A model generated the notes under the pieces. The model did no database searches and was not told where the DNA came from. It saw only the letters and a list, made by a program, of their open reading frames with translations. Position numbers and translations under genes: made by a program. DNA of 64,000 nucleotides from a virus. Positions 1 to 62,048 of this stretch are shown here, one piece after another (position 1 is the first letter of the stretch; every line of letters starts with the position of its first letter). Location: positions 46,387-110,386 of the IMG/VR virus record IMGVR_UViG_3300033056_000008. One strand, 5' to 3'.

Positions 1-101
1 GAAAATCTCTTACCATTTGATACATTACATTATTTTGATCTGTCATTAATTTATTTCCTCCAATTTTTACAATCGAATAAAATCCAACTTTTAAAGTGTT
101 G

Positions 102-139
102 ACAATCAGATAAGCCATCCCCATAACCTATCTGATTGT
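102..139 (-). terminator. Stem-loop downstream of the thioredoxin-like gene (terminator or processing site)
   Basis: ACAATCAGATA (102-112) / TATCTGATTGT (129-139) perfect 11-bp inverted repeat; U-tract weak. Confidence 0.45.
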
Positions 140-147
140 AATGTTAC

Positions 148-387
148 TTATAGCTGCTCGATCATTTCCACTAGTTCTTCTTCGTTGTAACCAATACTTC
201 TTTTAACTTCTTTATCTTGATCATCCAATAGGATAGTTACCGGTGTTCCCATCACCATAAATTCTGATGCTTTCTCTGGTGATAGTTGTACATTATACGA
301 CTCGTAAACAACTCCTTTATCTTGAAGTAAGTTTTCCACTCTCTCACATGGAGGACACGCTGGTTTATACAATTTTACTAATTTCAT
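148..387 (-). CDS. Thioredoxin/NrdH-like redoxin (SPbeta YosR-like)
   Basis: CPPC motif near N-terminus, GTP cis-Pro motif, 79 aa, directly downstream of nrdF. Confidence 0.85.
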   Translation of the reverse strand: MKLVKLYKPACPPCERVENLLQDKGVVYESYNVQLSPEKASEFMVMGTPVTILLDDQDKEVKRSIGYNEEELVEMIEQL

Positions 388-410
388 ATTATTACCTACC
401 TTATTATTTA

Positions 411-1379
411 TTAGAATATAAAATCTTCGTCTCTTAGTGGTTCAACCTTAGTTGCTTTAACATATCCATTACCTTTTACTGAGAAGAAATCATGATTCTT
501 TGTATCAGTCTTCATACCATTCTCAACAATAGGATTAATCTGTTCTTCTGCAAACTCGGCATCAAATCCAAGATTCATACAAGCTTTATTAGCATTATAT
601 CGAATGAATTTATTTACCTCATCAACTAAGCCGATCTGCTCGTATAACTCCTGAGTGTAAAACAACTCATTATCATACAGAGAATGTAACAATTCAGTTC
701 TTTCCATAATTGCTTCATCCTGTTCCTCTTTTGTTAGTTTCCCATAAAGTTCTTGAGCAATTAAACCTACGTAAACCCCATGGATACTTTCGTCGCGTAA
801 AATTAAATTGATTATTTCTCCGGAAGCTGTCATTTTACCCTGTCCTGCCAAGAATAAAGGATAAAAGAATCCAGAATAGAACAGGAATGATTCAAGATAA
901 ACAGACGCTACTGTAGCCATATATAAGTCATAATTGTTAACTTCTGGCTTAAACAACTTTTGATAATACTCAGATACTAACTTACCTTTTTTCTGTAAAT
1001 GTGGATGATTATGTACCCATTCAAATACCTGATCAATTTCCTCTTCACTTGCTAAGGTTGTGAAGATTGATGAGTACGACTTAGCATGTATCTGCTCCAT
1101 CATTCCCATAAAGGAAAGAACTCCTTTACGTTGTAAGCCACTCACATGCATAGAAATAAGTGGCATTCCTTCACCTCCTTGTTCAGTATCTAGTAGAGTT
1201 AATCCGCCCAATACTTTCATATATGTATCTTGTTCTTTAGGTAACATTTCAGCCCATGCATTCTTATCAGCAGAAAGACTTATCTCTTCTGGTAGCCAAA
1301 ACTGCCTAGTATTCTGTGTGTAAAACATTTGTGTATATTCATCTTCGTGTTGATTCCAATTCACAGCATATTTAGTCAT
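411..1379 (-). CDS. nrdF: Ribonucleotide reductase class Ib beta subunit
   Basis: AVNWN start, [21 protein letters not shown] iron-ligand motifs, HDFFS tail; start reassigned to ATG 1379 behind a GGAGG RBS. Confidence 0.97.
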
Positions 1380-1395
1380 TCTTTTCCTCCACTCA

Positions 1396-3489
1396 TTAGA
1401 CTGCGCAAGCAGTGCATACCTCGATTGATAAGTTACGTGTTCTTGTATAGTAAAGTGATTTAAGTCCAATTCCATCAGCGTAGATATAATATCTTCCTAG
1501 CTCTCTAGTTGAAACATCTGAATCAACATATAGAATTGTTGAAATTCCTTGGTCAACGTGTTCCTGTGCCGCAGCAATTAAATCCATTACCTTGTACTGA
1601 TTCATATCAAATGCTGACTTATAGAACCAGTAGTTTGTTTCATCCATATAAGGCATTGGATAGTATGTTGTAGAATTTGCATATGTACGTGATTCAATTG
1701 GGTTAACGATTGGCATTACTGATGCAGTAGCGTTTTGAATGTATCCAATAGATTGTGTCGGTGCTACAGCGAGGCGATACGCATTGTATAATCCAAACTT
1801 TTGCACATCTTTAGCTAACTTATCCCAATCTTTTAGTGTTGGTACATAGATACCTTCAAATAGCTTTTTCACTTTATCTGTCTTAGGTTCATAACTTACT
1901 TTTTTATACTTCTCAAAGTAAGTACCTTTTGCATACTCAGACTTATCAAAGTCTTTGAATGTTTCTTTTCGTTCCCTTGCAATCATCATACTTTTCTCAA
2001 GAGAGTAGTAATTCATCATCATAAAGAATGTTGCAGTGAAATCTTTAGCTTCATCTGATTCGTATGAGATCTTATTTTTAGCAAAGTAGCCGTGTAGATT
2101 CATGGCGCCTAATCCTATTGCATGCAATTCCTCATTAGCTTTCTTAACAGATGCTGCATTTTGTATATCAGATATATCAGAAACAGTTGTTAATGATTCA
2201 ATTCCAATATGGACAGAATCTCTAAACACATCACCAGGTTGCATTACATTCGGAATATTCAATGATCCTAAATTACAGTTGATATCTCTTCTAATAATGT
2301 CTTTTTCACCATAATCCGTGATTTCTGATGTCTCTTGTAGCTGGAAAATTTCTGTGCAAAGATTAGACATTTTAATCTGACCAATATCTTTGAGTGCATG
2401 GGCATTGTTGGCATTAGACTTATTCATAAAGTATGGATAACCTGATTCCAATTGGATTTGAGCAATCTTTGTGATCATGTCACGTGCTGACATTACAACT
2501 TTCTTTTTAACATTTGGATTAGCTACCAACTCTTCATACATGTCATCCATACGCATATCGTCCATATGAACACCATATTCCTTATATACGCTACGAGGAG
2601 CAAATACGTATAAATCTTTATTTTCTCTTGCTAACTGGAAGAACTTGTGTTCAACAATTAACCCGATTGACAGTGTTTGGATACGTGACTTCTCGTCGCT
2701 ATTTATTTTTTTGGTATCCAGGAATTCTACAACATCCCAATGGAAAATGTTTAAATATGCCGCCCCTGCTCCTTTTCGCTGTCCCAATTGATTTGCGTAA
2801 GAGAATGTATCTTCAAGTAACTTCATGACTGGAACAACACCTGATGCAGCATTATCTATTCCTTTGATTTGCTCACTACGGGCTCTCAGTTTAGAAAGGT
2901 TTAATGCAACACCACCACCAATTTTAGATAGCTGACCGGATGTGTTAATGTTGTGGAAGATTGAGTTTAATGAATCATCCATTTCAAGTAAGAAACACGA
3001 AACCATTTCACCTCTACGACTTCTTCCTGCGTTCAAGAATGTTGGCGTGGCAGGTTGATAACGTTGCTCAATCATTGCAATAGCAGTCTTCTTAGCCTTT
3101 TCATAATCACCCTGACCTAAGAACAATGCAGTAATTACAATTCGATCTTCATAAGTTTCCAGGTAGTTTTTCTTATCATTAGTCTTTAAGGCATAATCCT
3201 TATAGAACTTTGAGATAGCCATATATGATTGAAACTTAAATTCGTGACTATAGATAATGTCTGTAATCTCTTCAATTTCTGACATGCTGTATTGATCAAG
3301 TACTTGCGGATAGTAGAAATCTTCTTCAACCATGTATCTATATCTCTGCTCAACATTATCAAAGCTGATTAACTTAGCTTCAACTTCGGATTTAAGAAAT
3401 TCCTGTACAGCCTCTTTATCCTTCTCCAGTCGGTAGAATCCTTTTTCGTTCAGTTGTGTTACTTCATTGTTTAATTCTATATGTCTCAT
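1396..3489 (-). CDS. nrdE: Ribonucleotide reductase class Ib alpha subunit
   Basis: [43 protein letters not shown]-terminal CxxC; 697 aa, uninterrupted. Confidence 0.97.
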
Positions 3490-3850
3490 ATTTTAATGAT
3501 TGCACCCTTTCTTTAACGATCTCCACATCAGTTGGTGTTCCACTCATCTCAAACTTATGTATTATTGGAACTCCATACATCTTTGATATTTCATCTGCAC
3601 TTGCAGCAAATTTCATTCCCCAATTTCTATTCCCACTAGAACCTACTGCACAAAGGTTGATGTGATTTACCTTAAGAAAGTCTAATGTAGTTTGAGGTAC
3701 TTGCCCCATTCCTGTTGTAAATGTTAATAATATAAATGGTTCGTAGATTTGTAGGTTTGGTGAAATTTCTATTAAGCTACTTGATGGTAAACCTAACTTA
3801 CCTGCAAACTTCCGAACGTTACCTGTTAAGGAATTATAAACAACTAACAC
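3464..3850 (-). CDS. nrdI: NrdI flavodoxin
   Basis: YNSLTGNVRKF, TFTTGMGQVP, GSSGNRNWG, KFEMSGT; overlaps the nrdE start. Confidence 0.93.
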   Translation of the reverse strand: MLVVYNSLTGNVRKFAGKLGLPSSSLIEISPNLQIYEPFILLTFTTGMGQVPQTTLDFLKVNHINLCAVGSSGNRNWGMKFAASADEISKMYGVPIIHKFEMSGTPTDVEIVKERVQSLKYETYRIKQ

Positions 3851-3899
3851 TTAATCATCTTCTTTATAATTAATTTATTTTACTTTTATGTGATGTTTC

Positions 3900-4232
3900 T
3901 CAATAATTATATTTTTCCTTCGCGATTTCGGCTGTACCGTTTATGTATGTTTCATTTTCTTCTTGGTTAATCCAATCAGTCATACTTGCATATCCACTTG
4001 CAATATCTTTATATTTGTCTTCTAAAGGTAATTCTTCAAGTTCATCAATTGATACAGATATGTATTCACTCTTCATACTTTCAGGTATAATGTGCTGCTT
4101 ACCATCCATTGAAGTAAATATTGAATCTCCAGCATCATAATGTACTTCATGATCAAATTGATAAATGACGCCTGGTTCTGTTGCTACCGTGACTGTTCCG
4201 ACATTAGGCTTAAATGCAACATAGCTACTCAT
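3900..4232 (-). CDS. Hypothetical phage protein
   Basis: ORF with GGAGG RBS, co-oriented. Confidence 0.7.
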   Translation of the reverse strand: MSSYVAFKPNVGTVTVATEPGVIYQFDHEVHYDAGDSIFTSMDGKQHIIPESMKSEYISVSIDELEELPLEDKYKDIASGYASMTDWINQEENETYINGTAEIAKEKYNY

Positions 4233-4383
4233 TTTACCTCCCTGTGTAATTTATTTTATTTATACATTTCCAATAACTCTTCAATCGTAACAGTCTTAAA
4301 TTCAGTATCTCGTTCTTGATTGTCTGCATCAAACATTCTTTCATCAACAGTTGTAATATCCATTTGTAATCCACCTCCTTAAA

Positions 4384-4797
4384 TCAAATGTCTTTCTTGC
4401 TTCTATATATCTTCATTAAGTTTTCCATTCTTAAATTAGCTTCTTCTCTTAGTCTATCTGCTTCATGGACTTCGTTTTCTGACCATCCGGCTCTCCAATT
4501 AAGCACTCCTGTATCTTTCCACTCTCTGAATACCTCTTCAGGATATTTAGACTCATAAGCAAATCCTTCAGGCATTATTTTAAATTTCTTAATTAAATCA
4601 ATTAGTGCTGTTTCTGTTAAGTCGAAGCTCCATGATTCGTTGTCAAAATCAGAACCATATCCAAATTGAATAGTGAAGTTATGTAGTAAATTCTTATTGA
4701 TTTCACTACTCTCTAAATCGACTATTTCTCCTGTCATGTTACATATTCCTTTTGTAGCTACTTTTTCTTGCGAAGGTCTTAACTCGAACTCAATCAT
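4384..4797 (-). CDS. Hypothetical phage protein
   Basis: ORF with AGGAGG RBS. Confidence 0.7.
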   Translation of the reverse strand: MIEFELRPSQEKVATKGICNMTGEIVDLESSEINKNLLHNFTIQFGYGSDFDNESWSFDLTETALIDLIKKFKIMPEGFAYESKYPEEVFREWKDTGVLNWRAGWSENEVHEADRLREEANLRMENLMKIYRSKKDI

Positions 4798-4827
4798 TAA
4801 ATTCCTCCTTATAAAATGTAAGTTTTA

Positions 4828-5604: not shown

Positions 5605-5637
5605 TCACTCACCTCAAATTCTGATAAAAGTATAATT

Positions 5638-5940
5638 TTAAACAGTTCCATAAGCTGTTGTTTCGATCTGATTGCTTCCAAGATAGTAATATAAATGTGC
5701 TAGTTTTTCTTTATCTTGCATAAAACCCTCATCTAAAATTGCTTTTGAAAAATTTTTCCCTCGTAGAAACCCTTGAAGCACATTATCACAAGAGAAAATT
5801 CTATTTGCTAATTCATTAGGGTAAACATTTTTCATATAATTTGCTGGGATAATTAATATAGAATTTTTATCCTTATTTAGTAATTCAATTACCTTAGTAG
5901 TTTTACCTGATCCTCTTTCCTGATTATGAGTAGTTAACAT
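5638..5940 (-). CDS. Small protein with P-loop-like motif
   Basis: RGSGKTT and ILDEG motifs in only 100 aa. Confidence 0.6.
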   Translation of the reverse strand: MLTTHNQERGSGKTTKVIELLNKDKNSILIIPANYMKNVYPNELANRIFSCDNVLQGFLRGKNFSKAILDEGFMQDKEKLAHLYYYLGSNQIETTAYGTV

Positions 5941-6817: not shown

Positions 6818-6821
6818 AATG

Positions 6822-8044: not shown

Positions 8045-8347
8045 TTAAATAATATTCTGTTTTCTATTTTGTAGTTCTCTAATAACACTATAATCCTTTG
8101 TATGTAATAAATTCATGTCTATAAGTAGTTCAATAAATCCTAATTCAAATTCCTTACTGAATCCATCGTATGTCTCAAGATCATCTTCGAGATGCCATTT
8201 GCTAAGTCCGGTTGGAACGTCTACGTAGTATTCGTAGCTTACAATCTGATCACCGTTAACGTGAATGATGATTTCTTTTGTTCGTGTTACCTTGCCTTTA
8301 TACTTTGATTTCTTAATAATTACATTTTCACCATGAGCAAATTTCAT
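8045..8347 (-). CDS. Hypothetical phage protein
   Basis: ORF with GGAAGGG RBS. Confidence 0.65.
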   Translation of the reverse strand: MKFAHGENVIIKKSKYKGKVTRTKEIIIHVNGDQIVSYEYYVDVPTGLSKWHLEDDLETYDGFSKEFELGFIELLIDMNLLHTKDYSVIRELQNRKQNII

Positions 8348-8557
8348 TTCAATCCCTTCCTTTGTAAATTAATTTATTTTCTAAATTTATATTATCATCA
8401 TTTATCATGCTTGTCATTAAGTATTTTGATAATTAAGTAATTTATTTTTAAAATAAAATTGTAGTTTTATTTATTATAAAGTTTTGTATTTCAAGTATAA
8501 AATTATCACTCTATGACAATAATGAAATTATCAAACGAAAAAGGAGTGAATTATACC

Positions 8558-8737
8558 ATGGATGAGAAGAAAGCGAGAGCTCTCAGAAAAGCTTGGGCAG
8601 AAAAAGGAAATCCTCACTGTGATCACGATGACATAGAAAGAGAAATGCATAGTATTTATAACTGTCATAGTGATTATGTTTGTAATACTTGTGGAAAAGC
8701 TCATACAAGTATTGAAGGTTTTAAAAAGTCCTCATAA
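8558..8737 (+). CDS. Small putative zinc-binding protein, counter-oriented
   Basis: AAAGGAGTG RBS before ATG 8558; CDH...CxxC ligands. Confidence 0.6.
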   Translation: MDEKKARALRKAWAEKGNPHCDHDDIEREMHSIYNCHSDYVCNTCGKAHTSIEGFKKSS

Positions 8738-13290: not shown

Positions 13291-13322
13291 TTCAATCATC
13301 CTTTCAATATAAAAGTGCTGTT

Positions 13323-13565
13323 TTATTTGACTTCTTGTTTCTTTCCTAATACTAAATTTCTGATAACTGAGTACACATAGCACATGAATAGATACAGTAA
13401 TGCAGTGAATAGAATCGCACTGCCTTTCTCTACAACAATTTTCAGTAACTCATTTCGCAAGATACTCACATGAAACAAAAATCCATTTGTGAAAGCAGCT
13501 AATAGAACAAAAGTAACCTCTTGATACCATCTCAATCCCATACTGTTATAAAAAGTTTTAAACAA
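13323..13565 (-). CDS. Small membrane protein
   Basis: Two hydrophobic helices. Confidence 0.6.
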   Translation of the reverse strand: MFKTFYNSMGLRWYQEVTFVLLAAFTNGFLFHVSILRNELLKIVVEKGSAILFTALLYLFMCYVYSVIRNLVLGKKQEVK

Positions 13566-14956: not shown

Positions 14957-17260
14957 TTAAGCTGCTGGCAGTTGTACTTCTGCATCTTTCTTATCAGCCC
15001 AAGTGGTTTCTGTAAGCTCAAGATCAACAACTACTGGAACTTGCATCCAATCTACGTCCTCCATAATTTGTTTAATATGAGGGAAAATCCACTCTTCACC
15101 TTCATAAACAAGGAATTGTAGTTCATCATGTATGTTAGCTAAAAATTTAGTTTTACAGTTATTTTTCTCCAGAAACTCCCCGATTTTAACAACATAGTCT
15201 TTCAAGCAATCTGCACAAGAACCTTGAACTAGATAATTCCCAACCTTATATGCTTTTTCTGTATTAGTTAGGTAATAAACCCTCCCATACATGTTAGTCG
15301 CATAGTTATTCTTTTGGACTTTATTACTTACCTGTCTTTGATAATACGATACCTCAGGGAATGTATTAGACCACCCAGACACTAGGGCGTTAGCAATTTC
15401 CATAGATACCTCTAAAGCTTCGGATGCTTTCTTTGCACCCCCACCGTAGTTACGCATGAAATTAAACATTTTCCCTATGTATCTCCAAAACTTCTTAAAT
15501 GATTTCTCATCTACCGGAGTTTCCTTGTCGTGCTGATATTGCTTATATTTGCTTTCACATAAATAATTTAATGCCATTAACGTATTATGAGAAGTTTCAC
15601 TATGTACATCAGTAGGTGTCCAATAATCTCCATTCTCTAATAACCATACGGAATTACCTTCTGGCGTTTTCTCTGACCATCTCATACGGTCTTTCTTAGT
15701 ATCAAACTGATACTCTTCGCCAGTTATGTAGTGTTTACATTTGAAAGGCATATAAGCTCTGCAGAGATTTAAATCAGGTTTACCAAGTAATACTGTATAA
15801 TTAGCCTGTGCCCTCAATTCAATTTGAGATAAGTCAAAGTACGCAATCTTACTGTACTTTCCTCCTTCTACAATAAAGGCTCTCCTAGGAGAAAATATTT
15901 CTAGTTCAACCGGTGCTTTCCCTTCACCATGTTCTCTTTCGTATTTTTCTCCTTCTTCAGTAAGAATTCTTTCCTTTGGAAACTGCTGTGCATCTGATCC
16001 AAGACGACCTGATACAGTATTGAATTGACCGTATTGAGTATAGAATTTCCCATCGTATTCAGCTACTTCTATAATACGAGAGATATACGTAGACTGCCAT
16101 TTTTCTAGCCTTCTCAGCCTTGTAATAAGTTGTGAAACTCGATTATCTTTGTGTTTCTTTAAGAAAGATTTATCAGTAGTACTCGGTCTCTCTCCAAGAA
16201 GACTTTCAAAGTAATCCCCAATAATTTTATCTTGCGAAACGGTAAAGTTCTCGCCAACAGTCTCCCACAACTCCTCATATAACTTTTGGATTTCGCTATC
16301 ACATTTATCGAAACAGTCCTTTAGGTATTCCATATTTACCTTCATACCGGTTCTTTCCATCTTAAGTAGTTCGATTATCAATTTATTTTCTCTTTCAAAT
16401 AATTGTTTTTGTTTCCTTTTTAATACTGTTGGATAAAACATTTCTACAATCTCTAATGTGTAGATACCGTCACCGTGCACATACTCCATCATGATATTTC
16501 TATCTACCTCAGAATAATCAGCAAAAGGATTTTCTTCCATCCATTTAAAGTATAATTGCTCTACTTCTACAGGAACTTTTAGCCATCTTTGCTTACGCTC
16601 CTTAGTAAAAAAATCCATATCATTTCGTGATTTAATTTTATAGGCTTTTTTTATCATGCCTATTCCCCAGCCAATTTCCTTATATGGTTTAAGGAGTTCT
16701 TTTAATAACAAACGTTTCTTATCGTTTATTTTTCGTAATTCCTTTTTAACTTCTTTTTCAAATTCGGCTGCTCTTGGATCAATATACTTCTCTGCTACTT
16801 TCTTAAGTCCAAGGAAGTCTCCGCCGTCCCTAGCTGACACCGCATCAAATGACATTCTGCAAATACCCATAGTGTCAGCGATATTCTTTAGTCTATAAAC
16901 CTTCTCTTTTTCAACTCCTCCGTTTATTACCATATGTAAATCGTACTTAACGTTATGTCCTACAACCATTTGTATACTTTTAGACAGATCGATAACCTTA
17001 TTTAAGAATTCCACATTATGTTCAAATGCAAATACTTTTCCTTTGATTCCATCTTGCCGTTTATTTTTTGGAAGTAACCAACCAAAAACCCACATAAAAG
17101 GACGATCTTTTATTATATGTAATCCCGTTGTCTCAGAGTCAAAGACTGCTAGTTTAGGAGTATCTTGTTCAAACATAGTTTTAATTTCTTCAAAATCATT
17201 CGTCCAGTATTTCTTATATCTTTCTGTAACTTCCGTTTCTAATTTAGGAGTTACTAGCAT
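14957..17260 (-). CDS. Family A DNA polymerase with 3'-5' exonuclease
   Basis: FDSETTG (ExoI), GHNVKYDL (ExoII), DLSQIELR (motif A), RYIGKMFNFMRNYG (motif B), IHDEL (motif C). Confidence 0.93.
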   Translation of the reverse strand: MLVTPKLETEVTERYKKYWTNDFEEIKTMFEQDTPKLAVFDSETTGLHIIKDRPFMWVFGWLLPKNKRQDGIKGKVFAFEHNVEFLNKVIDLSKSIQMVVGHNVKYDLHMVINGGVEKEKVYRLKNIADTMGICRMSFDAVSARDGGDFLGLKKVAEKYIDPRAAEFEKEVKKELRKINDKKRLLLKELLKPYKEIGWGIGMIKKAYKIKSRNDMDFFTKERKQRWLKVPVEVEQLYFKWMEENPFADYSEVDRNIMMEYVHGDGIYTLEIVEMFYPTVLKRKQKQLFERENKLIIELLKMERTGMKVNMEYLKDCFDKCDSEIQKLYEELWETVGENFTVSQDKIIGDYFESLLGERPSTTDKSFLKKHKDNRVSQLITRLRRLEKWQSTYISRIIEVAEYDGKFYTQYGQFNTVSGRLGSDAQQFPKERILTEEGEKYEREHGEGKAPVELEIFSPRRAFIVEGGKYSKIAYFDLSQIELRAQANYTVLLGKPDLNLCRAYMPFKCKHYITGEEYQFDTKKDRMRWSEKTPEGNSVWLLENGDYWTPTDVHSETSHNTLMALNYLCESKYKQYQHDKETPVDEKSFKKFWRYIGKMFNFMRNYGGGAKKASEALEVSMEIANALVSGWSNTFPEVSYYQRQVSNKVQKNNYATNMYGRVYYLTNTEKAYKVGNYLVQGSCADCLKDYVVKIGEFLEKNNCKTKFLANIHDELQFLVYEGEEWIFPHIKQIMEDVDWMQVPVVVDLELTETTWADKKDAEVQLPAA

Positions 17261-17276
17261 CTACATCACCGTCTTT

Positions 17277-18956: not shown

Positions 18957-18972
18957 TCAATCCCCTCCTTTA

Positions 18973-20037: not shown

Positions 20038-20052
20038 TAGCTATTCCCCTTT

Positions 20053-21561: not shown

Positions 21562-21570
21562 ACTATCCTC

Positions 21571-22188: not shown

Positions 22189-22213
22189 TATTTCACCACC
22201 AATTTAAATCAAT

Positions 22214-22239
22214 TAGGGTAGATAAAAGCACCTACCCTA
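22214..22239. terminator. Intergenic hairpin
   Basis: TAGGGTAG-N10-CTACCCTA. Confidence 0.45.
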
Positions 22240-27966: not shown

Positions 27967-28048
27967 TTAAACCTCCTATTAAAAAATTAGTTTTATCCAA
28001 ACATTATGTACAAGAAGGAGGATATTCCTCCTCCCACTTATGATTTAA

Positions 28049-31075: not shown

Positions 31076-31192
31076 TTATATTCCTCCATATTCATATTAA
31101 AACATCGGTTTTAACTTATTTTTCATCTCCAATAGTTGCCTATTTCTTCATGCAAATAACCACCTATATCCCCTTTAATTTTTTCTTCGTCG

Positions 31193-33943: not shown

Positions 33944-34133
33944 TTATATCTCCTCCGTTTGTACTTATTGGTGATGAAAGGATACATTTTAAGATAATGT
34001 TTTTGCCAAAAACTAAGCTCCATTCCTAAAAACTTTTCCATGAAACGAGTTGGATCATTTTTTAATTTTTCTAATTCATTACTCATAAAACCAACTCCTT
34101 TGAATTAATTTATTTTTTAATAAAAGCTGACTT

Positions 34134-34436
34134 TTATCTTATTTGTCCATTCATTTTAGCCGTCATTATGTCTCTTAGATGTTGCTGAGGATTGGCTTTA
34201 TAATTGTTTATCGTAGCTTCCGTTTGTTGCATTTCATTTAACATAGCTTTAATATGAGGGAGAGTTTTAATATAATTTTCACAAGCTTCAACTTCCAGAT
34301 CGTTCGTTACACCATGTTTAATGAGCAATTGAGTTAATGTTTCTAATTTGATATTAATATCAACCATCATCTTTAAATTTCTTAGTGTTTTCGAGGCATC
34401 ATCTAAGTTGTAAAAATCATTATTGCTGAACATCAC
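34134..34436 (-). CDS. Hypothetical phage protein
   Basis: GGAGG RBS. Confidence 0.65.
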   Translation of the reverse strand: MMFSNNDFYNLDDASKTLRNLKMMVDINIKLETLTQLLIKHGVTNDLEVEACENYIKTLPHIKAMLNEMQQTEATINNYKANPQQHLRDIMTAKMNGQIR

Positions 34437-34840: not shown

Positions 34841-35089
34841 TTATTTATCTGTTTTTGATTTCAAAGGAGTTTCATCTAACATCTTAAACAGTACTTCTTG
34901 CTCCTCTTTCATAGAATCTATAATTTCATTTAGAAGCTTAATTTTGGTTGACGCTTTTTCTTCGTTGGCTAAATCTTGTGTAATTATGTCAAAGAGTTTA
35001 TCTGTTTTTCTATCAATTTCATTTATACGTTTTAATGCGTCTAGACCTGTCACGCTGCACACTCCTTCTCTTTTCATATAAAAACCCAA
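34841..35089 (-). CDS. Hypothetical coiled-coil protein
   Basis: Co-oriented ORF. Confidence 0.55.
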   Translation of the reverse strand: MGFYMKREGVCSVTGLDALKRINEIDRKTDKLFDIITQDLANEEKASTKIKLLNEIIDSMKEEQEVLFKMLDETPLKSKTDK

Positions 35090-35091
35090 TT

Positions 35092-35475
35092 TTATAAGCT
35101 TTTAAATGTATTTTTAATTTCCTTCTTAGCTACTTCCCTTACTTCATTCAAGATCTCACTGTTAATTTTCTTAGAAATACGTTCATACATCTTATTTTCA
35201 AGTGTTTTATTTAACCCTGCAGCTAATTTAGCTTCTACTTTTGATTCATAACTAGACAATACTTCCTCTGATATCAAGCTTACTATTTGTTTAATAACTT
35301 CTGCCTTTACTTCTTTAGACACCTTTTCAATGTGGACTCTATAAGCACCAGCAGAACCAAATGCAACATCCTTTGTAATTGATTCAGCTATTTTATCAGC
35401 AACTAATTGTTCAAAACTTTCTTGATCGTACTCTTCATAAAAATCATATTCAACTACTACATTAAATTTTGCCAT
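35092..35475 (-). CDS. Hypothetical phage protein
   Basis: GAGGAGG RBS. Confidence 0.7.
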   Translation of the reverse strand: MAKFNVVVEYDFYEEYDQESFEQLVADKIAESITKDVAFGSAGAYRVHIEKVSKEVKAEVIKQIVSLISEEVLSSYESKVEAKLAAGLNKTLENKMYERISKKINSEILNEVREVAKKEIKNTFKSL

Positions 35476-36061: not shown

Positions 36062-36180
36062 TTGCCAGTATTAAATCTTCAACTTGCTCATCAGAAATAT
36101 TTATTTTATATTCATTAGCCCATTCCATTATTGTTGTTTTCATTGCTTCGTTCATGGCATCCTCCTATAAAACAATCTTT

Positions 36181-36468
36181 TTATCCTGCTAAGTAAGCTA
36201 GTTTCTTGGACTTAACACCATTTCCGTAAATAATGTCACAACTTAAATGTTTTTCATCATATTTTAAATTATCAACCCTGCATTCTCTTGGTACACTATT
36301 ACCATGCATGCTACCAATAACAGAAGGTCGCTCCACCGTTTTTGCCTCTTTAATTTCAACAATAAAATCTTGCTAACTACTTACTTCAATAACTCTGGAT
36401 TGATGATCCGCTATTGCTTCACCATCCCAATCCATTATCGACAAGTTAGTTTCAATTATTTTTACCAT
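36181..36468 (-). pseudogene. 95-codon gene interrupted by in-frame TAG at 36375-36373
   Basis: GGGGAGGG RBS, ATG 36468, MVKIIETNL...EVSS*QDFIVEIK...LAG then TAA at 36183-36181. Confidence 0.7.
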
Positions 36469-36513
36469 TAAAGTATCCCTCCCCTTAAAACTTCACATTT
36501 ATGTTAAATCCGT

Positions 36514-36714
36514 TTATAAACAATCCCATCCACTACACTTTAGACACCTAATACCACTCCAACAATTTGGGTCTAATCTATGATCGCAATCTGGATCAGC
36601 GTTCCACAGTACATCGCCATTGTCTAAATAAACTGTTTCACGTTTAGTTGCAGCCTCTTTTGGATTCTGTTCAATTTTACTCATACTGACTTTCATCACT
36701 CCCTCATAAAACAC
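36514..36714 (-). CDS. Small Cys-rich protein
   Basis: C-terminal CDH...CWSGIRCLKCSGWDC. Confidence 0.6.
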   Translation of the reverse strand: MFYEGVMKVSMSKIEQNPKEAATKRETVYLDNGDVLWNADPDCDHRLDPNCWSGIRCLKCSGWDCL

Positions 36715-36851
36715 AGATTTTAATATTTATTTTCTTTTCATACTTATTAAGTAATTCTTCCGTTAAGGTGTAACACTGATTATCACATTCATTAAATCAA
36801 TAATTAATTGCTGTATCTGATTCATAAAAACACATCATTTTAATATCTTAA

Positions 36852-40638: not shown

Positions 40639-40726
40639 AGCTTCACCCACCAAATTCTCTATATATCGTAATTTAATTTTATTATAACGAACTTTACATG
40701 TAAACCTTTTATCATTTTATGATAAT

Positions 40727-41803
40727 TTATTTTCTACACTCTTTTTCATAAAATCTTTTAATTTCATTTTTAACTTTTGAGCTCGAACTCATAATAAAAA
40801 GCTTAAACTGCTCTATTGTCATATCCTCAATAAAGTCCATCTCGATTTCTTTATCCATTAAGATGCCTGGCATATTAAGATAATCTTTATCTTTGTCCAT
40901 ATAATGTTTTACTGATGTGTTAATATTGCCATGGTGTAATTGTCTTTGCACTCTTTTTAAATCCCTATTTCGCTCGTAGTCCCAATCTGCTGCAACCCCT
41001 CGAAAACTATGGAATACAATTCTTCTATCTCCTACAAATTTTACCTTCTTAAGTAATCTCTTCATCATGTCATTTACTCCTGATACAGATAACTTAAACA
41101 ATAACTCTTGATTACCCTTCCATTTTGGCACATGTATGTTAGATAAGTTAGAAATTTTTTTATATAAATCAATACTAATTGGATTTTCTTTATCTTTGTA
41201 TTTCTTTTCTGTTAATTTATCAACATGAACCAATACTACCCCTTCATCCTCAAGTACTTCAAAATTATCAATTGTTAATTTAAGTAATTCTGAAAGTCTA
41301 AATGAAGTTCTTATTGCTAATTTACATAGTAACTGTTTCATTTCTGCTAAATTCTTCTCAGTATGTGGGACTAAGCTAATTAATGTTTCTGCCTCTTCAA
41401 AAGTAAGGTTATCATAGGATTCAGAATCATCCGGTAAACTATTCAAATTAAATATTCCTAAGTTTAGTTCTAGATACACCTTTAATTTTGTTGCAAATTT
41501 TTTAGTAAACAAACTTTTTATTGATCTAACTTTTTTATTTATCGTATTGTTTGAATTACCTTTAAGCTTTAGTTCACTTCGGTATCTCACTAAATCATCT
41601 TGTTCAATATTTGTTATATCTAATGGAGTTAATAATTCAATTGGCTTATTAGGAAAGATAATATCAAAGAATTCGTTTATTGTTCCTTTATATGAAGCAA
41701 GGGTACCGGTTTTACCTTCTTGTTTTAAAGTTTCATAAAAAACTTGGATATCATTGTATACCTGGTAACTATGTAACGCTTCAAGTTTAGGACTAGTTGA
41801 CAT
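40727..41803 (-). CDS. yopP: Tyrosine recombinase (YopP/SroD-like) with intact catalytic set
   Basis: RTSFRLSEL (R), FHSFR (HxxR), LHHGNINTSVKHY (H, Y); 358 aa. Confidence 0.85.
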   Translation of the reverse strand: MSTSPKLEALHSYQVYNDIQVFYETLKQEGKTGTLASYKGTINEFFDIIFPNKPIELLTPLDITNIEQDDLVRYRSELKLKGNSNNTINKKVRSIKSLFTKKFATKLKVYLELNLGIFNLNSLPDDSESYDNLTFEEAETLISLVPHTEKNLAEMKQLLCKLAIRTSFRLSELLKLTIDNFEVLEDEGVVLVHVDKLTEKKYKDKENPISIDLYKKISNLSNIHVPKWKGNQELLFKLSVSGVNDMMKRLLKKVKFVGDRRIVFHSFRGVAADWDYERNRDLKRVQRQLHHGNINTSVKHYMDKDKDYLNMPGILMDKEIEMDFIEDMTIEQFKLFIMSSSSKVKNEIKRFYEKECRK

Positions 41804-41993
41804 ATCGCTTACCCCCTTCAAAACTTTCTAATTTATTTATTCTATTTTCAAGTATTTTTACAATTGTTTTGAATATCATTAAGTTTTTTTTCATTATAGC
41901 TAAGTTATTATGTTTAGAACCTTCTTTTACCCATTCGATTAAATTATGATTTGATACATCTAATTCTAATTTTCTAGGTTTTACAATATGCAT
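41793..41993 (-). CDS. 66-aa first gene of the repressor operon
   Basis: GGAGAGGGG RBS, ATG 41993, overlaps the yopP start. Confidence 0.6.
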   Translation of the reverse strand: MHIVKPRKLELDVSNHNLIEWVKEGSKHNNLAIMKKNLMIFKTIVKILENRINKLESFEGGKRYVN

Positions 41994-42073
41994 TTGTAAT
42001 TCCCCTCTCCAATATAGACTAAATTTACGTTTTATATACGAATACAATTAATTTATTTTCAACTAATTATATC

Positions 42074-42113
42074 AAACATACCGAAAATGTGTAAAGCAAA
42101 AATTGGTATGTTT
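42074..42113. repeat. Long-spacer inverted repeat, copy 2, over the repressor-operon promoter
   Basis: AAACATACC-N22-GGTATGTTT; straddles the -35 of TTTACA (42095-42090)-18-TATAAT (42071-42066) on the minus strand. Confidence 0.8.
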
Positions 42114-42229
42114 TACACAATAAATTATTATTGACACAATTTTTCTTACCAACTTATCCCTTCTTATCCTTTTCTCCACTATATAAACAACTCTTTACCT
42201 GCTTTATAATAGTATATGAGGTGTTTATA

Positions 42230-43057: not shown

Positions 43058-43137
43058 TTACATTAAAAAAGAATATATTGTTAATGTGGTTTGAGCCTCC
43101 ACGGTTCATAAATAACCTTCTGTAGAGATGGTTTTTG

Positions 43138-43166
43138 AAAGACCTATTTTTAGGTCTTTTTTTTGT
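43138..43166 (+). terminator. Rho-independent terminator after the ligase
   Basis: AAAGACCTA-TTTT-TAGGTCTTT followed by a T run. Confidence 0.75.
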
Positions 43167-43384
43167 ATACTCTGTTTAAAATTGGATAATATAACTTATG
43201 TACTATTACCCTTAGTAGTACTACACAAAGCGATAGAACCCTATGAGCTCACTCATTCCATAGGGTTCTTCATTATAAAATATAGGTTTTATTATGCATA
43301 CTATTTAAGAAATTGGTCAAAATAATTGTATTAACTCTTCAAATTGCTCCGAAGTTGTTAATAATACAAAACACTGATGAAGAT

Positions 43385-45308: not shown

Positions 45309-45333
45309 AAAACTCTCCTTTAAAATCGGTCTT

Positions 45334-45549
45334 TTAATGAAAATCACAACAGCAATTGTTATCAAAGTGCTTTAACTTATCGTCAATTAGCTTCAATAAT
45401 TTCTCTTTATTTAATTCTAAGAATTTATTATATTCGTCGCTGTATTGAGAAATAACATCTGGGTTTACCAAGTCATAATGCACATTATTTCCTTCCTCTA
45501 AGCAATACCATTTACGTCCTTTTGAATCAATTGAAAATACAATACTCAT
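45334..45549 (-). CDS. Small phage protein
   Basis: ATG 45549 behind AGGAGG. Confidence 0.55.
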   Translation of the reverse strand: MSIVFSIDSKGRKWYCLEEGNNVHYDLVNPDVISQYSDEYNKFLELNKEKLLKLIDDKLKHFDNNCCCDFH

Positions 45550-46005: not shown

Positions 46006-46399
46006 TTGCTACCTCCAATTCTTTAATATAAGGATCATTTTATTGGATTTCATTATTTTTTAAAATTTCATGCATTTCATTGAAGAATAAACTAAGTTCT
46101 AGACAGTTTTCTACAGACAATGAATGAGAAAAATATTTATCACCTAAGAAGTTTCTCCTGTGAGCACCGTGTCCTAAACCTACTATGTATACTTTATCCA
46201 TTTAATTTTCCTCCTTGTCTAATTTTACCTTTTACAACAATTTCAACATTTTTGTCTAACTTAACATCTGTTCTCAATCGTCTAAAATCCCACTTTGCAT
46301 CAAACTCACAAGTTGCTGGAATTTTAACAATGTCTTTCTCATTAACTACGAATACATACATATTCATTAAGTTTAACTCTTCTAAAATAAATGTTTTAT

Positions 46400-46615: not shown

Positions 46616-46647
46616 TTACCTGTCTCCTTTACTTTAAAACTGATATT

Positions 46648-47067
46648 TTATATAATCAGTTCAATTAATTCTCTAATGCACTTCTTTTCAGTTAACGACA
46701 AGTTATTCCCTTCAATCATTCCGTTGCGAAATAAAATCCTCTCAATTTTAATTTCTAATAAGTCATCAGTTAATTTATAGTTAAATCCTTTAATCGTTTG
46801 AGTTGCAACTTGTTCAACTAAATCAAGGATGTGTAACTCCTCATCTAGATTATCGCAATCAATTGTAATAGACATGTTAGCAAACAATGCGATCTTATGC
46901 TCTCCAAATTGACCTAGAAAGAAGTTGTTTTCTTCCTCAATAACATTAAATATATCTTTCAAACTTGTGAAAATAGGCTTGTAATCAACTGCAAAATACA
47001 TACCTTTTGGAAAATAAGTGTTCATTTTACAACTCCTCCAGTAATTTATTTTCATAATTAATAGCAA
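46648..47067 (-). CDS. Hypothetical phage protein
   Basis: Likely start ATG near 47025 behind GGAG. Confidence 0.6.
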   Translation of the reverse strand: MLLIMKINYWRSCKMNTYFPKGMYFAVDYKPIFTSLKDIFNVIEEENNFFLGQFGEHKIALFANMSITIDCDNLDEELHILDLVEQVATQTIKGFNYKLTDDLLEIKIERILFRNGMIEGNNLSLTEKKCIRELIELII

Positions 47068-50058: not shown

Positions 50059-50386
50059 CCCGTTTGTTAACCTCCATTATTTAATTAATTTATTTAATTA
50101 ATTTTATTATTATGTAATAAAAGTTTGTGAATCTTCACCCGTTATAAACCTTGTTATATCAACGTTTCCAAACTTATTTCACAATCTAATTCAGCATAAA
50201 ATCATGGTTTTATTTAGTCTCGGTACTTAGCAATTCACAAATCCACTTATGAAATTCAATATCTTTTATAATCTTCCTTCTGCTTTCTGACTTTTTAGTG
50301 TAAAGAAGAATTTTTTCTAAATATTCTATTCTTTCTTTAGAAGTGTCATTTACGTATCTGAGAATTTCTATAGCAAGTCATCCTTT

Positions 50387-55245: not shown

Positions 55246-55343
55246 TACTTTTTCTATAATTTTCTAACTTTTATCAAAATAAAAAGCCCTAATATGGGCT
55301 AATTTTAGTTTAAAACTGCTGTTTTATCTACTTACTCACATTT

Positions 55344-57320: not shown

Positions 57321-57341
57321 TATATCACCTCTGTATAAAAT

Positions 57342-57665
57342 TCAGTTTTTATTTTCATATATGTTACCTACAACCTCAAATTTCAAAATAGCAAGTAGAC
57401 TCATATTTTCCTCTTCTCCACAGCTATTCCTAACAACAAATCTAGCTAGTGTAGGAGCGTAAATAACTTCCCAGGTTTCATTATTTTTCAATAAATCACC
57501 TTCATAAATCTCTACTCCGTTTTTATCATTAAGTCCTGTATATTGTAAGAAAATGATATTCTTAGCTTCTTCTACATATTGAAAGGGAGTTGATTGTTTT
57601 ACATCTTTCCAAGACCACATTTCATTATAATCAGTATTCCATACTCTAAACTTTATTTCTCTCAC
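57342..57665 (-). CDS. YopX family protein
   Basis: REIKFRVW...LQYTGLNDKNGVEIYEGD...EVVGNIYEN. Confidence 0.9.
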   Translation of the reverse strand: MREIKFRVWNTDYNEMWSWKDVKQSTPFQYVEEAKNIIFLQYTGLNDKNGVEIYEGDLLKNNETWEVIYAPTLARFVVRNSCGEEENMSLLAILKFEVVGNIYENKN

Positions 57666-57717
57666 TCAGTCAACTCCTTTGTATAAAATCACTATTTTAA
57701 ATTATTTATTTTCAACC

Positions 57718-58286: not shown

Positions 58287-58732
58287 ACTGTTTCCTCCTT
58301 ATAAAATGAGATTTTTAATCTAACCTTTTACAATGCTAAGTGAATAAATAGACTTATATCATAAGGTTTCAAACTATGTTATCCTTAAATCACCTAAAAA
58401 TAATATTTTAAACTGTATTGCAGATATTGTTTTTTTGAATAATACTGAGGATGATGTCATATTGAATTTGGACAAAAAGTCGCATATAATGGTAAAGTTC
58501 ATTTTATCTTTTTCAATCATGAAAACGGTCTATTAGAAATTCAAGAACCAGTAACTAAATCTATAATTTTAGTAAATCACAAAGACTTGATTATTAGAGT
58601 GAAGTAAGGTCATCTTTGATGGCTTTATTTATTATTCTTTTTAGTCGTAGCACTATAATTTTATTTGTATAAGTGAATAATCCCTCACTTTCTTTCACCT
58701 TACCTACTCCTTTTTTAAAATTAGAATTTTAT

Positions 58733-58915
58733 TTAAACAGTTTTAATATAGCTAGGATTATGTCTTACTTCTTCAATATAAGCACCTGAGTCATATTCTT
58801 TATTCATAATATCAATATATGCTTGTGCCATTTCCTCTGTATCAAAACAACCTTCACAAGCTGTTTGTTCAACACCATACATTTCTACACTATACATTAC
58901 TAAGTACTTCACCAT
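58733..58915 (-). CDS. Small phage protein
   Basis: AAAGGTG RBS. Confidence 0.6.
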   Translation of the reverse strand: MVKYLVMYSVEMYGVEQTACEGCFDTEEMAQAYIDIMNKEYDSGAYIEEVRHNPSYIKTV

Positions 58916-59910: not shown

Positions 59911-59964
59911 GTCGAATCACCCCTTCTATTATTATAATTTATTTTACATAAAATTAATTTTTTA

Positions 59965-60183
59965 TTAAATTTCTTTAAAATGTGACTCTAATGTTTCCAG
60001 AGTAATTTCAATCCAACTATCCTTACTCTCTAAACGTATGTCAGATAAAGATGAATCCTCTTGTATCTCCCATATAGAATCTTTATTTATCACTATGTAT
60101 TCATTATCAATTTGGTATCCATCTTCATCATATTTTTGTAGCATTAAGTCTTCGATACATTTAAATGATTTTTCAATTTCCAT
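59965..60183 (-). CDS. Acidic small protein
   Basis: GGAGG RBS. Confidence 0.6.
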   Translation of the reverse strand: MEIEKSFKCIEDLMLQKYDEDGYQIDNEYIVINKDSIWEIQEDSSLSDIRLESKDSWIEITLETLESHFKEI

Positions 60184-60207: not shown

Positions 60208-60402
60208 TTATAATAATGCATATCCATCATATAATTCATAATCATCTTCTACTAACGCTAAATAATACTGCGAAAAATCGCTCCAATGATTTTCATTCCA
60301 TTCGTTAACTAACTGCTTACCAAAATATTCATTTACATTCTCTGCAACTACCTGCTCAACAAACAAGTCTCTGTCAAAGTTATCCTTCGTTATAATTTTC
60401 AT
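60208..60402 (-). CDS. Small phage protein
   Basis: AGGAG RBS. Confidence 0.6.
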   Translation of the reverse strand: MKIITKDNFDRDLFVEQVVAENVNEYFGKQLVNEWNENHWSDFSQYYLALVEDDYELYDGYALL

Positions 60403-60494
60403 TTAACAAACTCCTAACAATTAATTTATTTTGTTTTTAAAAACTAAATGTACCTGAGTTAACTTCATATCTTGATGTAACTAACATTAATAAA

Positions 60495-61235
60495 TTAACA
60501 CTCAATTTGAACTAAATTTGAATTTAATCTACAATAAATCTTATTTTCATACTTTTCATTCGACACTTCTTCAGTTTTTCTAGTATCAGTTTTCGTTTTC
60601 CAATCAAAAGAACCGGTAATATGTCTTTCAATCTCCATTACTCTATAAGTATCGTGAGGATTAGTTGAATTGACACTCAATATTTCTACTTTCTTTTTTA
60701 TCATGGGAGTATCATCTAAAACAAAACCATATTGCTTAACTGCTACATGTGCCTCTACGATATCACCAACCTTATATTCTGGTTGCAAATCTGGATTATA
60801 TAGATCATGCAGCGAAAATCCATAAAACCTATCTAAAGTTTCAATATCATCATTATCGTTTATCAAATCTGCACACTCGTTATCTTCAACAGTAAGTAAA
60901 GATTCAATATAACTAATCATTTTCTTAAATGATTGTTCATTTGTAATATACCTTACTCTGTGGTCATCTCCTTCTCTCCCAGCATTTTGTATTATCATAA
61001 CTGGATCATTTTCATACCAAACAGATGCTAAAGTCCATGTTCTTCTACCATCGAAACTATAATCAGCATAATATTTAATATCAATCTTTTCGTTTACATC
61101 TTCTAATCCATAATAAGAATCTATATATCTTTTTTCACTTATCTCTGGCAGATGGTCATAATAGTATCCTTTCAAATGCCCTAAGCATCTTTCAATTCTT
61201 TGAGGCTCTAATTTATATAAATCGATTGCTTTCAT
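60495..61235 (-). CDS. Hypothetical phage protein
   Basis: Probable start MKAIDLYK at 61235 behind GGAGG. Confidence 0.7.
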   Translation of the reverse strand: MKAIDLYKLEPQRIERCLGHLKGYYYDHLPEISEKRYIDSYYGLEDVNEKIDIKYYADYSFDGRRTWTLASVWYENDPVMIIQNAGREGDDHRVRYITNEQSFKKMISYIESLLTVEDNECADLINDNDDIETLDRFYGFSLHDLYNPDLQPEYKVGDIVEAHVAVKQYGFVLDDTPMIKKKVEILSVNSTNPHDTYRVMEIERHITGSFDWKTKTDTRKTEEVSNEKYENKIYCRLNSNLVQIEC

Positions 61236-61236
61236 T

Positions 61237-61512
61237 TCAGCGATCCTCCAATTTATTATATAATTTATTTGGCATCTCAATACATTCGCAATCATAAACA
61301 TCCTTGTTGTCATCATAAACAATATTAATACTTAATTTTCTTCCGTCTTCCACAATTATATCTTCTTCCCAGTATGTGTCACGGTCAGTTTCTATTAGTC
61401 TATGATCATTGAGATCTACATTTAGGTCTCCACAAATTTCATCAATAAATTGACAAGATGCTGCCTCAATAGTGTAATACTCTGCATCATATTCTTGTTC
61501 TTTTGTATACAT
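61237..61512 (-). CDS. Acidic hypothetical protein
   Basis: Probable start MYTKEQE at 61512 behind GAGGAG. Confidence 0.6.
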   Translation of the reverse strand: MYTKEQEYDAEYYTIEAASCQFIDEICGDLNVDLNDHRLIETDRDTYWEEDIIVEDGRKLSINIVYDDNKDVYDCECIEMPNKLYNKLEDR

Positions 61513-61553
61513 TCTCCTCACTCCTATAATATTTTTATTTGAATAACTGTCTT

Positions 61554-62048
61554 TCATTGACTCAGCCAGTCGTTCTTGTGTAATCTCTCTGGATTGGTAT
61601 AAATGTTTCCTATGACTTTACAAGTTTGGTTTATTCCTCTGCCAATACCATAATCGCAATAATCAACTAAATCTTCTTTTATTTTCCCTGTAAGTTCCTG
61701 AATAAAAGGATTTGTATTTATCCAAATGCCTAGATAATCAACTCTAACTTGAGAAGCATGTTTTCTTCTTCCATCTGTAACAACTACTATGTCATTATTA
61801 AATATTTTCACTCCTGTATCATCATACAATCCAGTCCACTGTAGTAATTCAACATCATTAATACTTCTCCATTCAGATACATCCGGATTTTCTTTACTTA
61901 CAACTCCAATATCTTTTCCACTTTTACATCCCAAAGGAAAATATATACTGCTAACTTCATACATCAATTTTTCTTCTCTATCCCACACCTTAAACTCGAA
62001 GTTCATTCTTATACCTCCTTCTCTAAATAAAACTAAGTTTTTATTCAA
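61554..62048 (-). CDS. YopX family protein
   Basis: FEFKVWD...LLQWTGLYDDTGVKIFNND...VIGNIYTNPE; likely start near 62008. Confidence 0.85.
   Translation of the reverse strand: MNKNLVLFREGGIRMNFEFKVWDREEKLMYEVSSIYFPLGCKSGKDIGVVSKENPDVSEWRSINDVELLQWTGLYDDTGVKIFNNDIVVVTDGRRKHASQVRVDYLGIWINTNPFIQELTGKIKEDLVDYCDYGIGRGINQTCKVIGNIYTNPERLHKNDWLSQ

Follow-up and report, generated by a model that had tools for sequence, protein, structure and literature searches.

We analyzed a 64,000-nt stretch of phage DNA (positions 46,387 to 110,386 of the IMG/VR record IMGVR_UViG_3300033056_000008, hereafter the window), in which the short palindrome TAAAA-N6-TTTTA, two inverted arms around a 6-bp spacer, recurs between genes. 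The proteins encoded in the window include MrpR/YopR-, YopQ-, YopP- and AimR-like products, and the phage is only distantly related to known phages (MrpR, 26-31% identical). No close relative was obtained by megablast of the phage collection or among viral contigs, and the phage was matched only in marine and macroalgae metagenome DNA runs. An initial annotation had listed 19 exact copies of the palindrome, estimated that one or two would occur by chance, and proposed that each copy might bound a mobile cassette. Our exhaustive scan recovered all 19 starts and found seven further copies (marked in Table 1), giving 26 in the window compared with 1.46 expected (s.d. 1.25, maximum 5) from 100 dinucleotide shuffles. 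The whole source genome (178,470 bp) contains 35 copies: 29 belong to the early cluster on the minus strand, 6 to the late arm, and the first 46 kb has none.

The genes run on the minus strand, and the junction counts given here rest on our own gene calls. Gene junctions hold 25 of the 26 copies, the lone intragenic one being found in a polA-like gene. In seven copies the TAA of the motif is itself the stop codon of the upstream gene (gap -3), and in five more the motif begins 0-1 nt past the stop. A ribosome site directly follows the motif, and for about 18 copies the start codon lies 10-25 nt beyond it. Three stretches of the window, 94-4811 (nrd), 15156-27979 (replication) and 36723-43275 (yopP-Q-R), are free of the motif. 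The initial annotation had thus described the arrangement correctly when it placed the copies at junctions, noted that the first TAA is often the upstream stop and that the far arm abuts the Shine-Dalgarno sequence, and saw no copies within these three operons. Following the 55311 copy on the transcribed strand, there is a GC-rich terminator-like hairpin with a T-tract (55285-55300), with a 321-aa gene on one side and the following small genes on the other.

Table 1. Positions in the window of the palindrome copies and of the candidate enzyme gene
Feature	Position	Strand	Context
Motif copy	78..93		junction; start codon 31 nt further
Motif copy	4812..4827		0 nt past upstream stop; followed by TAAGGAGG; start codon 14 nt further
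Motif copy	5625..5640		TAA = stop of gene 5638-5940
Motif copy	8454..8469		longer intergenic stretch, genes 8045-8347(-) and 8558-8737(+)
Motif copy (new)	13310..13325		TAA = stop of gene 13323-13565
Motif copy (new)	15140..15155		within polA-like gene, 183 nt from its 3' end; sole intragenic copy
Motif copy	27980..27995		start codon 13 nt further
Motif copy	31098..31113		start codon 22 nt further
Motif copy	34121..34136		TAA = stop of gene 34134-34433
Motif copy (new)	35079..35094		TAA = stop of gene 35092-35475
Motif copy	36168..36183		TAA = stop; spacer AGATTG, kept by decayed copy in relative L115
One-mismatch copy	36486..36501		36-nt conserved island in relative L115
Motif copy	36707..36722		same 16-mer in relative L115
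YopP-like Xer-type tyrosine recombinase, candidate enzyme/binder	40727..41821	-	Pfam Phage_integrase 7e-16
Motif copy (new)	43276..43291		between ligase gene (+) and minus-strand genes
Motif copy	45321..45336		TAA = stop; start codon 12 nt further
Motif copy (new)	46383..46398		1 nt past stop; start codon 15 nt further
Motif copy	46635..46650		TAA = stop; start codon 19 nt further
Motif copy	50197..50212		longer intergenic stretch
Motif copy	55311..55326		17 nt past stop; then terminator-like hairpin at 55300-55285
Motif copy	57336..57351		overlaps end of gene 57342-57665; start codon 15 nt further
Motif copy	57684..57699		start codon 18 nt further
Motif copy	58302..58317		followed by TAAGGAGG; start codon 15 nt further
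Motif copy (new)	58395..58410		within intergenic stretch 58287-58732
Motif copy	58716..58731		1 nt past stop of gene 58733-58915
Motif copy	59949..59964		0 nt past stop of gene 59965-60183
Motif copy	62028..62043		1 nt past stop; start codon 21 nt further
Motif copy (new)	63937..63952		start codon 13 nt further

The spacing and the sequence of the arms are strict. Among gaps of 0-14 nt, only N6 stands out in the window, every other gap giving 0-4 copies, so that the enrichment of N6 over N5 and N7, on which the initial annotation had made its proposal depend, is real; the reversed arrangement TTTTA-Nx-TAAAA has no peak at any gap in the window. Sites with at most one mismatch number 56 against 27.8 expected, and those with exactly one mismatch 30 against about 26. 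The one-mismatch copies reported earlier at 5967, 30671, 36486, 45586, 57125, 63121 and 63373 are present, but as a class they are at chance level. When eight phage segments were pooled, 107 exact N6 copies were obtained compared with 3-8 at N4, N5, N7 and N8, and nearly all changes in a single arm were at background, with the exception of TGAAA..TTTTA and its mirror TAAAA..TTTCA, both enriched to the same extent. In transcript orientation the window consensus is A-TAAAA-(C)N5-TTTTA-T with the ribosome site immediately after it, C occupying spacer position 1 in 11 of 26 copies. The arms extend by one base in the window phage (A-TAAAA/TTTTA-T) and further in SPbeta (TYTNAA-TAAAA/TTTTA-TTNARA), where the site takes an 11-6-11 form.

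In several phage genomes no gapped palindrome ranks above this motif, and SPbeta-like phages carry about 20-50 copies per genome. Exact N6 copies number 34 in SPbeta (0-3 at other gaps), 35 in SPR, 34 in BUCT083, 33 in FADO, 31 in Goe14, 30 each in phi3T and Geobacillus phage E3, 28 in pW2, 25 in Kirov, 23 in B. cereus phage PBC2, and 17 each in Psychrobacillus phage Perkons and a Staphylococcus SPbeta-like phage; with the 18-bp form counted, a B. cohnii phage has 14 and Mammaliicoccus phage phi116 has 26. The motif reaches phages of Clostridia, since the 68-126 kb region of the C. difficile phage phiCD211 (NC_029048), which shows a weak YopP-like match, has 26 N6 copies (2-12 at other gaps), which lie immediately ahead of ribosome sites as they do in the window. 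By contrast, the Brevibacillus phage Sundance, similar in GC content, has none, an Alicyclobacillus phage has two and was counted as a negative case, and 25 loci of other Bacillaceae genomes (~480 kb) show no N6 excess. We conclude that the motif is neither a general property of the hosts nor an effect of composition, and a host-wide element was rejected on the evidence of these loci. An exact SPbeta 40-mer gave no match in the genome contig collection. Of the SPbeta copies, a single one lies within an annotated feature of the GenBank record (stem_loop 2622-2651), and the motif goes unmentioned in the SPbeta review and in the MrpR, arbitrium and Goe-phage papers, a set to which the 1999 SPbeta genome paper does not belong.

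The initial annotation had suggested aligning SPbeta-like genomes and asking whether breakpoints coincide with the motif. We compared six SPbeta-group genomes all against all (30 ordered pairs, co-directional junctions), and a homology breakpoint was found in 34% of motif junctions but in 14.5% of their immediate motif-free neighbours (odds ratio 3.0), with the same direction in nearly all of the pairs. The alignment ends (high-scoring segment pairs) cluster at -8..+3 and +12..+24 relative to the motif start. With the spacer included, 44 distinct 16-mers are common to at least two of these genomes and are perfectly colinear; 15 of them occur in all five complete genomes in identical circular order, while the distances between neighbours vary (e.g., 924-3009 bp). 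We made gapped comparisons of the 400-nt flanks in genome pairs sharing one identical 16-mer. Both flanks were homologous in 96 cases, only the downstream flank in 63, only the upstream flank in 36 and neither in 76, so that the pairs with one homologous flank number 99 at the DNA level, or 108 when protein-only matches are included. Which neighbour a copy retains, the upstream or the downstream one, can differ between comparisons, and one identical 16-mer shows all four combinations of upstream and downstream flanks. Moving away from the 16-mer, identity drops after 1-2 nt on the upstream side and about 5-8 nt on the downstream side to what unrelated motif copies show, and the spacer is identical in 86% of the joints with one homologous flank, compared with 89% of those with both. 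Isolated exact matches of at least 16 nt outside longer alignments contain the motif in 76 of 249 cases, whereas the motif makes up ~0.4% of the DNA. A separate conserved island, starting ATTTCCCGGGCAAGCGCAG, lies at SPbeta 116998 and at matching places in phi3T, Goe14 and BUCT083 with unalignable flanks; its first half resembles the Noc-binding site.

Similar joints were seen in an independent group of phages and in the lineage of the window phage. In the B. cereus group, where about 0.4 shared 16-mers would be expected per pair, PBC2 and Kirov share 8 identical 16-mers (0.37 expected) in perfectly colinear order, PBC2 and pW2 share 8 and Kirov and pW2 share 10, with nearly uniform orientation; the immediate flanks of the shared 16-mers are mostly non-homologous and overall identity is 72-80%. 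In the window lineage, a 5.6-kb metagenome contig, L115, is 78-84% identical to the window and can be followed across three successive junctions. It has the identical 16-mer of the 36707 copy, with a 78% identical upstream flank and a non-homologous downstream gene; the 36486 one-mismatch copy forms the conserved island between two replaced cassettes; and at 36168 the copy is decayed with its spacer kept, next to a non-homologous upstream cassette. The two small genes between these sites have given way to unrelated sequence. Also missing from L115 are ~110 nt of the window (36740-36849) just upstream of the conserved 36707 copy.

Within one genome no spacer is duplicated (0 vs 1.35 expected) and none is palindromic (0 vs 2.8 expected), both in the predicted direction and neither significant. 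The window phage and SPbeta-group phages have 2-5 identical spacers in common (0.8 expected), and three are common to the window phage and FADO; the window copies in question, compared with BUCT083, SPR and Goe14, are those at 4812, 15140, 45321, 55311 and 58716. Such spacers may be either preferred spacers or very old sites. Deep conservation of spacers was considered and rejected, as the matches to distant phages lack homologous flanks and colinearity.

Perkons (MT325768) provides a natural specificity variant. Its half-site is relaxed to TRAAA, with 52 sites in the whole genome, and the forms TAAAA/TTTTA (17), mixed (25) and TGAAA/TTTCA (10) occur as expected of independent half-sites (p² : 2pq : q²). 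The mixed class includes 14 A-C hybrids, which base pairing would disfavour. Hybrids with an A-C mismatch (TAAAA..TTTCA) and those with a G-U pair are equally frequent. Because the arm variants assort independently, base pairing between the arms is not required. At junctions with both flanks aligned, the arms are 97-99% identical compared with 75-91% for the flanks, while the spacer is close to the flank rate (95.6 vs 91% in the SPbeta group, 76 vs 75% in the B. cereus group), indicating that purifying selection acts on the arms. The motif is in all probability a real, selected double-stranded DNA site for a protein, one that coincides with the joints of the phage mosaic.

How, then, could such joints arise? 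Site-specific recombination would be the simplest mechanism to yield a double-stranded DNA palindrome, a position-specific centre, exact joints and conserved order at the same time, and we give about an even chance to the joints having been made in this way at the motif. In the mechanism that we propose, each copy would be bound as double-stranded DNA by a symmetric dimer of a phage-lineage protein, with the two arms of 5-6 bp as recognition elements; symmetric sites imply a single recognition specificity. The 6-bp centre, which differs by position within a genome and is the same at the equivalent position in relatives, would have to match between partners. Recombination would thereby be limited to allelic sites of two co-resident genomes, and the content between sites would be exchanged with gene order preserved. 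Because all centres differ, sites of one genome could not recombine together, and no deletion or inversion between them would result. A centre of its own at every position, together with colinear order, points to allelic exchange and not to module transposition. On these sequence comparisons, the reading we prefer, at about even odds, is that the copies are position-tagged recombination sites for ordered cassette exchange between related phages. As for the mobile cassettes of the initial annotation, the motif does bound exchangeable gene units, as judged from the breakpoint excess, the identical copies with unrelated flanks in conserved order and the replacements in L115, but we do not expect single-gene circles to be excised as in integrons, every site of a genome having a spacer of its own. 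The initial annotation had also held that the variable spacer argues against spacer-homology recombination; this does not follow, since the spacer of each position is shared with relatives, as allelic exchange needs.

The enzyme may be YopP, the conserved Xer-like tyrosine recombinase of these phages. The inverted arms and 6-bp centre have the Xer-like geometry that was noticed at the outset, and the window YopP, described earlier as an intact tyrosine recombinase, keeps R169, K200, H265, R268, H291 and Y301 as catalytic residues (alignment A1); five of the six are invariant across six lineages at 24-30% identity. A search of the PDB with the single sequence gave no match and a family profile was needed, which matched the XerC-like 4a8e, XerD 1a0p, XerA 5hxy and XerH 5jjv. 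Among proteins of solved structure, Xer recombinases stand nearest to the family. YopP orthologues were found in all motif-bearing Bacillus, Geobacillus, Psychrobacillus, Staphylococcus and Mammaliicoccus phages searched with the family profile, with scores of 290-470 bits for phages outside the profile alignment. YopP of SPbeta is reported to be expressed in lysogens, and the papers named above assign no function to it. That YopP is the recombinase acting at the motif is a proposal we make with less than even confidence. YopQ (DndB/ParB-like) was also considered as a binder of the motif and was set aside, as it was not detected in the motif-bearing PBC2.

Several observations weigh against recombination by YopP at the motif. 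Three lineages (SPbeta, the Staphylococcus phage and PBC2) have Lys at the Arg-II position of YopP. Divergent YopP homologues (180-200 bits) are present in Sundance and the Alicyclobacillus phage, which lack the motif, and phiCD211 carries the motif with a recombinase match of only 48 bits. The spacer in vertically inherited junctions evolves at about the flank rate and so is not itself selected, and the tight fit of the motif between stop codon and ribosome site could mean a role in expression. The pooled genome pairs behind the breakpoint excess are not phylogenetically independent. Finally, laboratory phi3T x SPbeta hybrids crossed over within identical blocks of 1.4-18 kb, for which ordinary homologous recombination suffices; the crossovers of these hybrids (phi3Ts) are not placeable within the blocks and are uninformative on the motif.

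The main alternative, which we consider rather unlikely, is that the motif is the operator of a dimeric regulator, acting as a roadblock or 'stoperator'-like silencer or as an activator of the gene just downstream. The copies would then mark independent expression units and the mosaic joints would be secondary, since 16-21 bp of identity permits rare short-homology recombination by phage annealing proteins and the bound protein may stall forks. Symmetric and independent half-sites, strict arms around a near-neutral spacer, a fixed position 10-30 nt ahead of start codons adjoining the ribosome site, and the concentration of copies in the early cluster all suit an operator, and Sak4-like annealing and RecJ-like proteins are annotated in these phages. 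MrpR, the SPbeta master repressor with a recombinase fold encoded in the same operon as YopP, is moreover a precedent for a recombinase fold turned repressor, but its chromatin affinity purification sequencing (ChAP-seq) gave ten peaks, all at promoters with its operator SPBRE and none assigned to the 34 SPbeta copies of our motif (PMC10516654). Homologous recombination would also have very little to work with in 16-21 bp, yet the same exact joints come up again and again in different contexts, and crossovers scattered through the arms would not leave the spacer nearly as identical at joints with one homologous flank as at those with both. Operators usually show degenerate copies, whereas here one-mismatch copies are at background. 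A regulator accounts for the arms, for a spacer that is neutral and for the constant distance from the ribosome site; it is less successful with the recurrent exact joints at only 16-21 bp of identity and with the lack of degenerate copies. Recombination could instead be carried out by host enzymes of the XerC/XerD type (CodV/RipX in Bacillus), the cassettes being phage counterparts of the Acinetobacter dif modules. Xer enzymes are universal in the hosts from Bacilli to Clostridioides, whose phages the motif spans; the 11-6-11 geometry in SPbeta equals that of dif, and phiCD211 has the motif and no clear YopP orthologue. The copies are symmetric, however, whereas XerC/XerD sites have two unlike arms, and their arms probably bear no resemblance to the B. 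subtilis dif. Sundance lacks the motif although Brevibacillus has Xer enzymes, and the Bacillaceae loci show no N6 excess, making host recombinases improbable as the agents.

A role in mRNA, whether as a hairpin, as a site of RNase processing or as a ribosome standby site between cistrons, would fit the position of the motif on the transcribed strand, after the stop codon and before the ribosome site, and the frequent C at spacer position 1. Three raw-read RNA runs for SPbeta gave no matching read. A role in mRNA is nevertheless very improbable, and we reject the hairpin that had been an alternative in the initial annotation: predicted hairpins at the motif reach only -1 to -6 kcal/mol with z-scores of -1.3 to +0.5 relative to shuffles, no palindromic arm other than TGAAA/TTTCA is enriched at N6, A-C hybrids are as common as G-U ones, the half-sites of Perkons behave independently, and copies are present at convergent and divergent junctions too. 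We give as little credit to the idea that YonO, the phage RNA polymerase, or a sigma factor of host or phage uses the motif as a compact promoter. The motif does lie just upstream of many genes and the genome does encode a YonO homologue, but none was detected in three motif-bearing lineages (E3, the Staphylococcus phage and PBC2), and the 'sigma-like' gene of the E3 type is present also in the motif-free Sundance, for which reasons a phage-polymerase promoter is unlikely. In addition, the copies are mostly in early and not late genes, a palindrome has no direction, and sigma-70-like sites show neither an excess (106 vs 114 in shuffles) nor systematic overlap with the motif. A last reading, in which A-rich stop contexts and U-rich leaders produce the motif through composition alone, could draw on the AT-rich genome and on the TAA stops that overlap the motif in seven window copies, but it is next to impossible to reconcile with the excess over dinucleotide shuffles, with N6 alone being enriched in every positive genome, with the absence of the motif from Sundance at similar GC content, or with arms that are conserved well above their flanks.

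By analogy, the motif would come nearest in function to two systems, the Acinetobacter dif modules and cassette exchange through heterospecific lox sites, and its role would parallel that of the PeSL (promoter-early stem-loop) motifs of T4-type phages. It lacks, all the same, defining features of pdif, attC, stoperators, PeSLs and SPBRE. Xer/dif, Cre/loxP and heterospecific lox/FRT sites have inverted arms and an overlap region of 6-8 bp, and identity of the centre gates recombination. TAAAA-N6-TTTTA, found at N6 only, has this core-site architecture, and its copies with different centres would, like heterospecific lox/FRT sites, not cross-react. We are not aware of a natural precedent in which a genome holds some 20-50 heterospecific sites. 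The attC sites of integron cassettes are imperfect palindromes recombined as folded single strands by IntI with attI, cassettes being excised as circles. In our motif the arm variants are independent, the fold energy is at shuffle level and adjacent sites never share a spacer; no IntI/attI platform turned up, and no search was aimed at one. The stoperators of cluster A mycobacteriophages, to which the immunity repressor (L5 gp71) binds, are asymmetric and point in the direction of transcription. Like them, the motif is one short site repeated two to three dozen times in short gene gaps of a temperate phage, in a pattern consistent with a single DNA-binding protein; unlike them, it is palindromic and coincides with recombination joints, and the ChAP-seq peaks of MrpR are at SPBRE only (PMC10516654).

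In Acinetobacter plasmids, dif modules are flanked by pdif (XerC/XerD) sites (PMC6449649, PMC13141974). The likeness lies in many short sites of the 28-bp type, with inverted arms and a 6-bp centre, that bound small accessory-gene modules shuffled between related replicons, a movement ascribed to Xer-type tyrosine recombination. Our motif, in contrast, is on a phage and has another arm sequence, a position-specific, colinear centre and a phage-encoded Xer-like protein as candidate enzyme; instead of distinct XerC and XerD arms it has one sequence inverted, the half-sites of which behave identically. PeSLs are likewise conserved intergenic motifs; in large phages they are repeated on either side of small accessory genes where the genome is plastic, and they bound insertions, deletions and replacements between relatives (PMC2839356, PMC4122927). 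They are composite promoter-terminator elements thought to act via homologous recombination, whereas our motif is only 16 bp long with a position-specific centre, and shows neither a promoter excess nor a stable stem-loop. SPBRE, the 15-bp MrpR operator present in about ten promoter copies in SPbeta (PMC10516654), is also a repeated element of the same phages bound by a recombinase-fold protein, but the motif differs from it in sequence and in its 34 SPbeta copies, mostly within operons. Three SPbeta copies (76171, 99498 and 129297 of NC_001884) adjoin ATACA-N7-TGTAT-like sequences, of the form ATACAAAAA..TATGTAT, upstream of aimR, yorE and yosX; these are probably SPBRE operators of MrpR, in which case both repeats are adjacent at some early promoters.

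Other genes of the 178-kb phage outside the window may be recorded here. The YonO-like single-subunit RNA polymerase (G000:C1:131778-134546; 922 aa, Pfam RdRP family) is 26% identical to SPbeta YonO, with a YonP-like gene ahead of it and a YonK-like gene ~1.8 kb downstream. Between the early and late arms lie a tubulin/FtsZ-family gene (129406-130533 of the same contig, minus strand; Pfam Tubulin, 1e-15) and a gene for an FtsK/SpoIIIE-family ATPase (123856-126084, minus strand).

The accurate slotting of new genes at gene borders in mosaic phage genomes is largely unexplained, and few sequence-defined systems for it are known, e.g., integrons, dif modules and the PeSLs of T4. We suggest, tentatively and at a little under even chance, that the SPbeta-like phages of hosts from Bacillus to Clostridioides have a built-in system of ordered cassette exchange, in which ~20-50 heterospecific, position-tagged sites would be recombined by YopP, and that co-resident phages or prophages may in this way swap accessory genes at junctions with their own genomes left unscrambled. 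The motif occurs in the best-studied large temperate Bacillus phage and is thus open to direct experiments in B. subtilis. If it is the operator of a regulator, a genome-wide layer of control in SPbeta has been missed. If it is a site of site-specific recombination, YopP would gain a function, the rapid turnover of accessory and counter-defence genes would be explained, and these phages would hold a natural set of orthogonal recombination sites.

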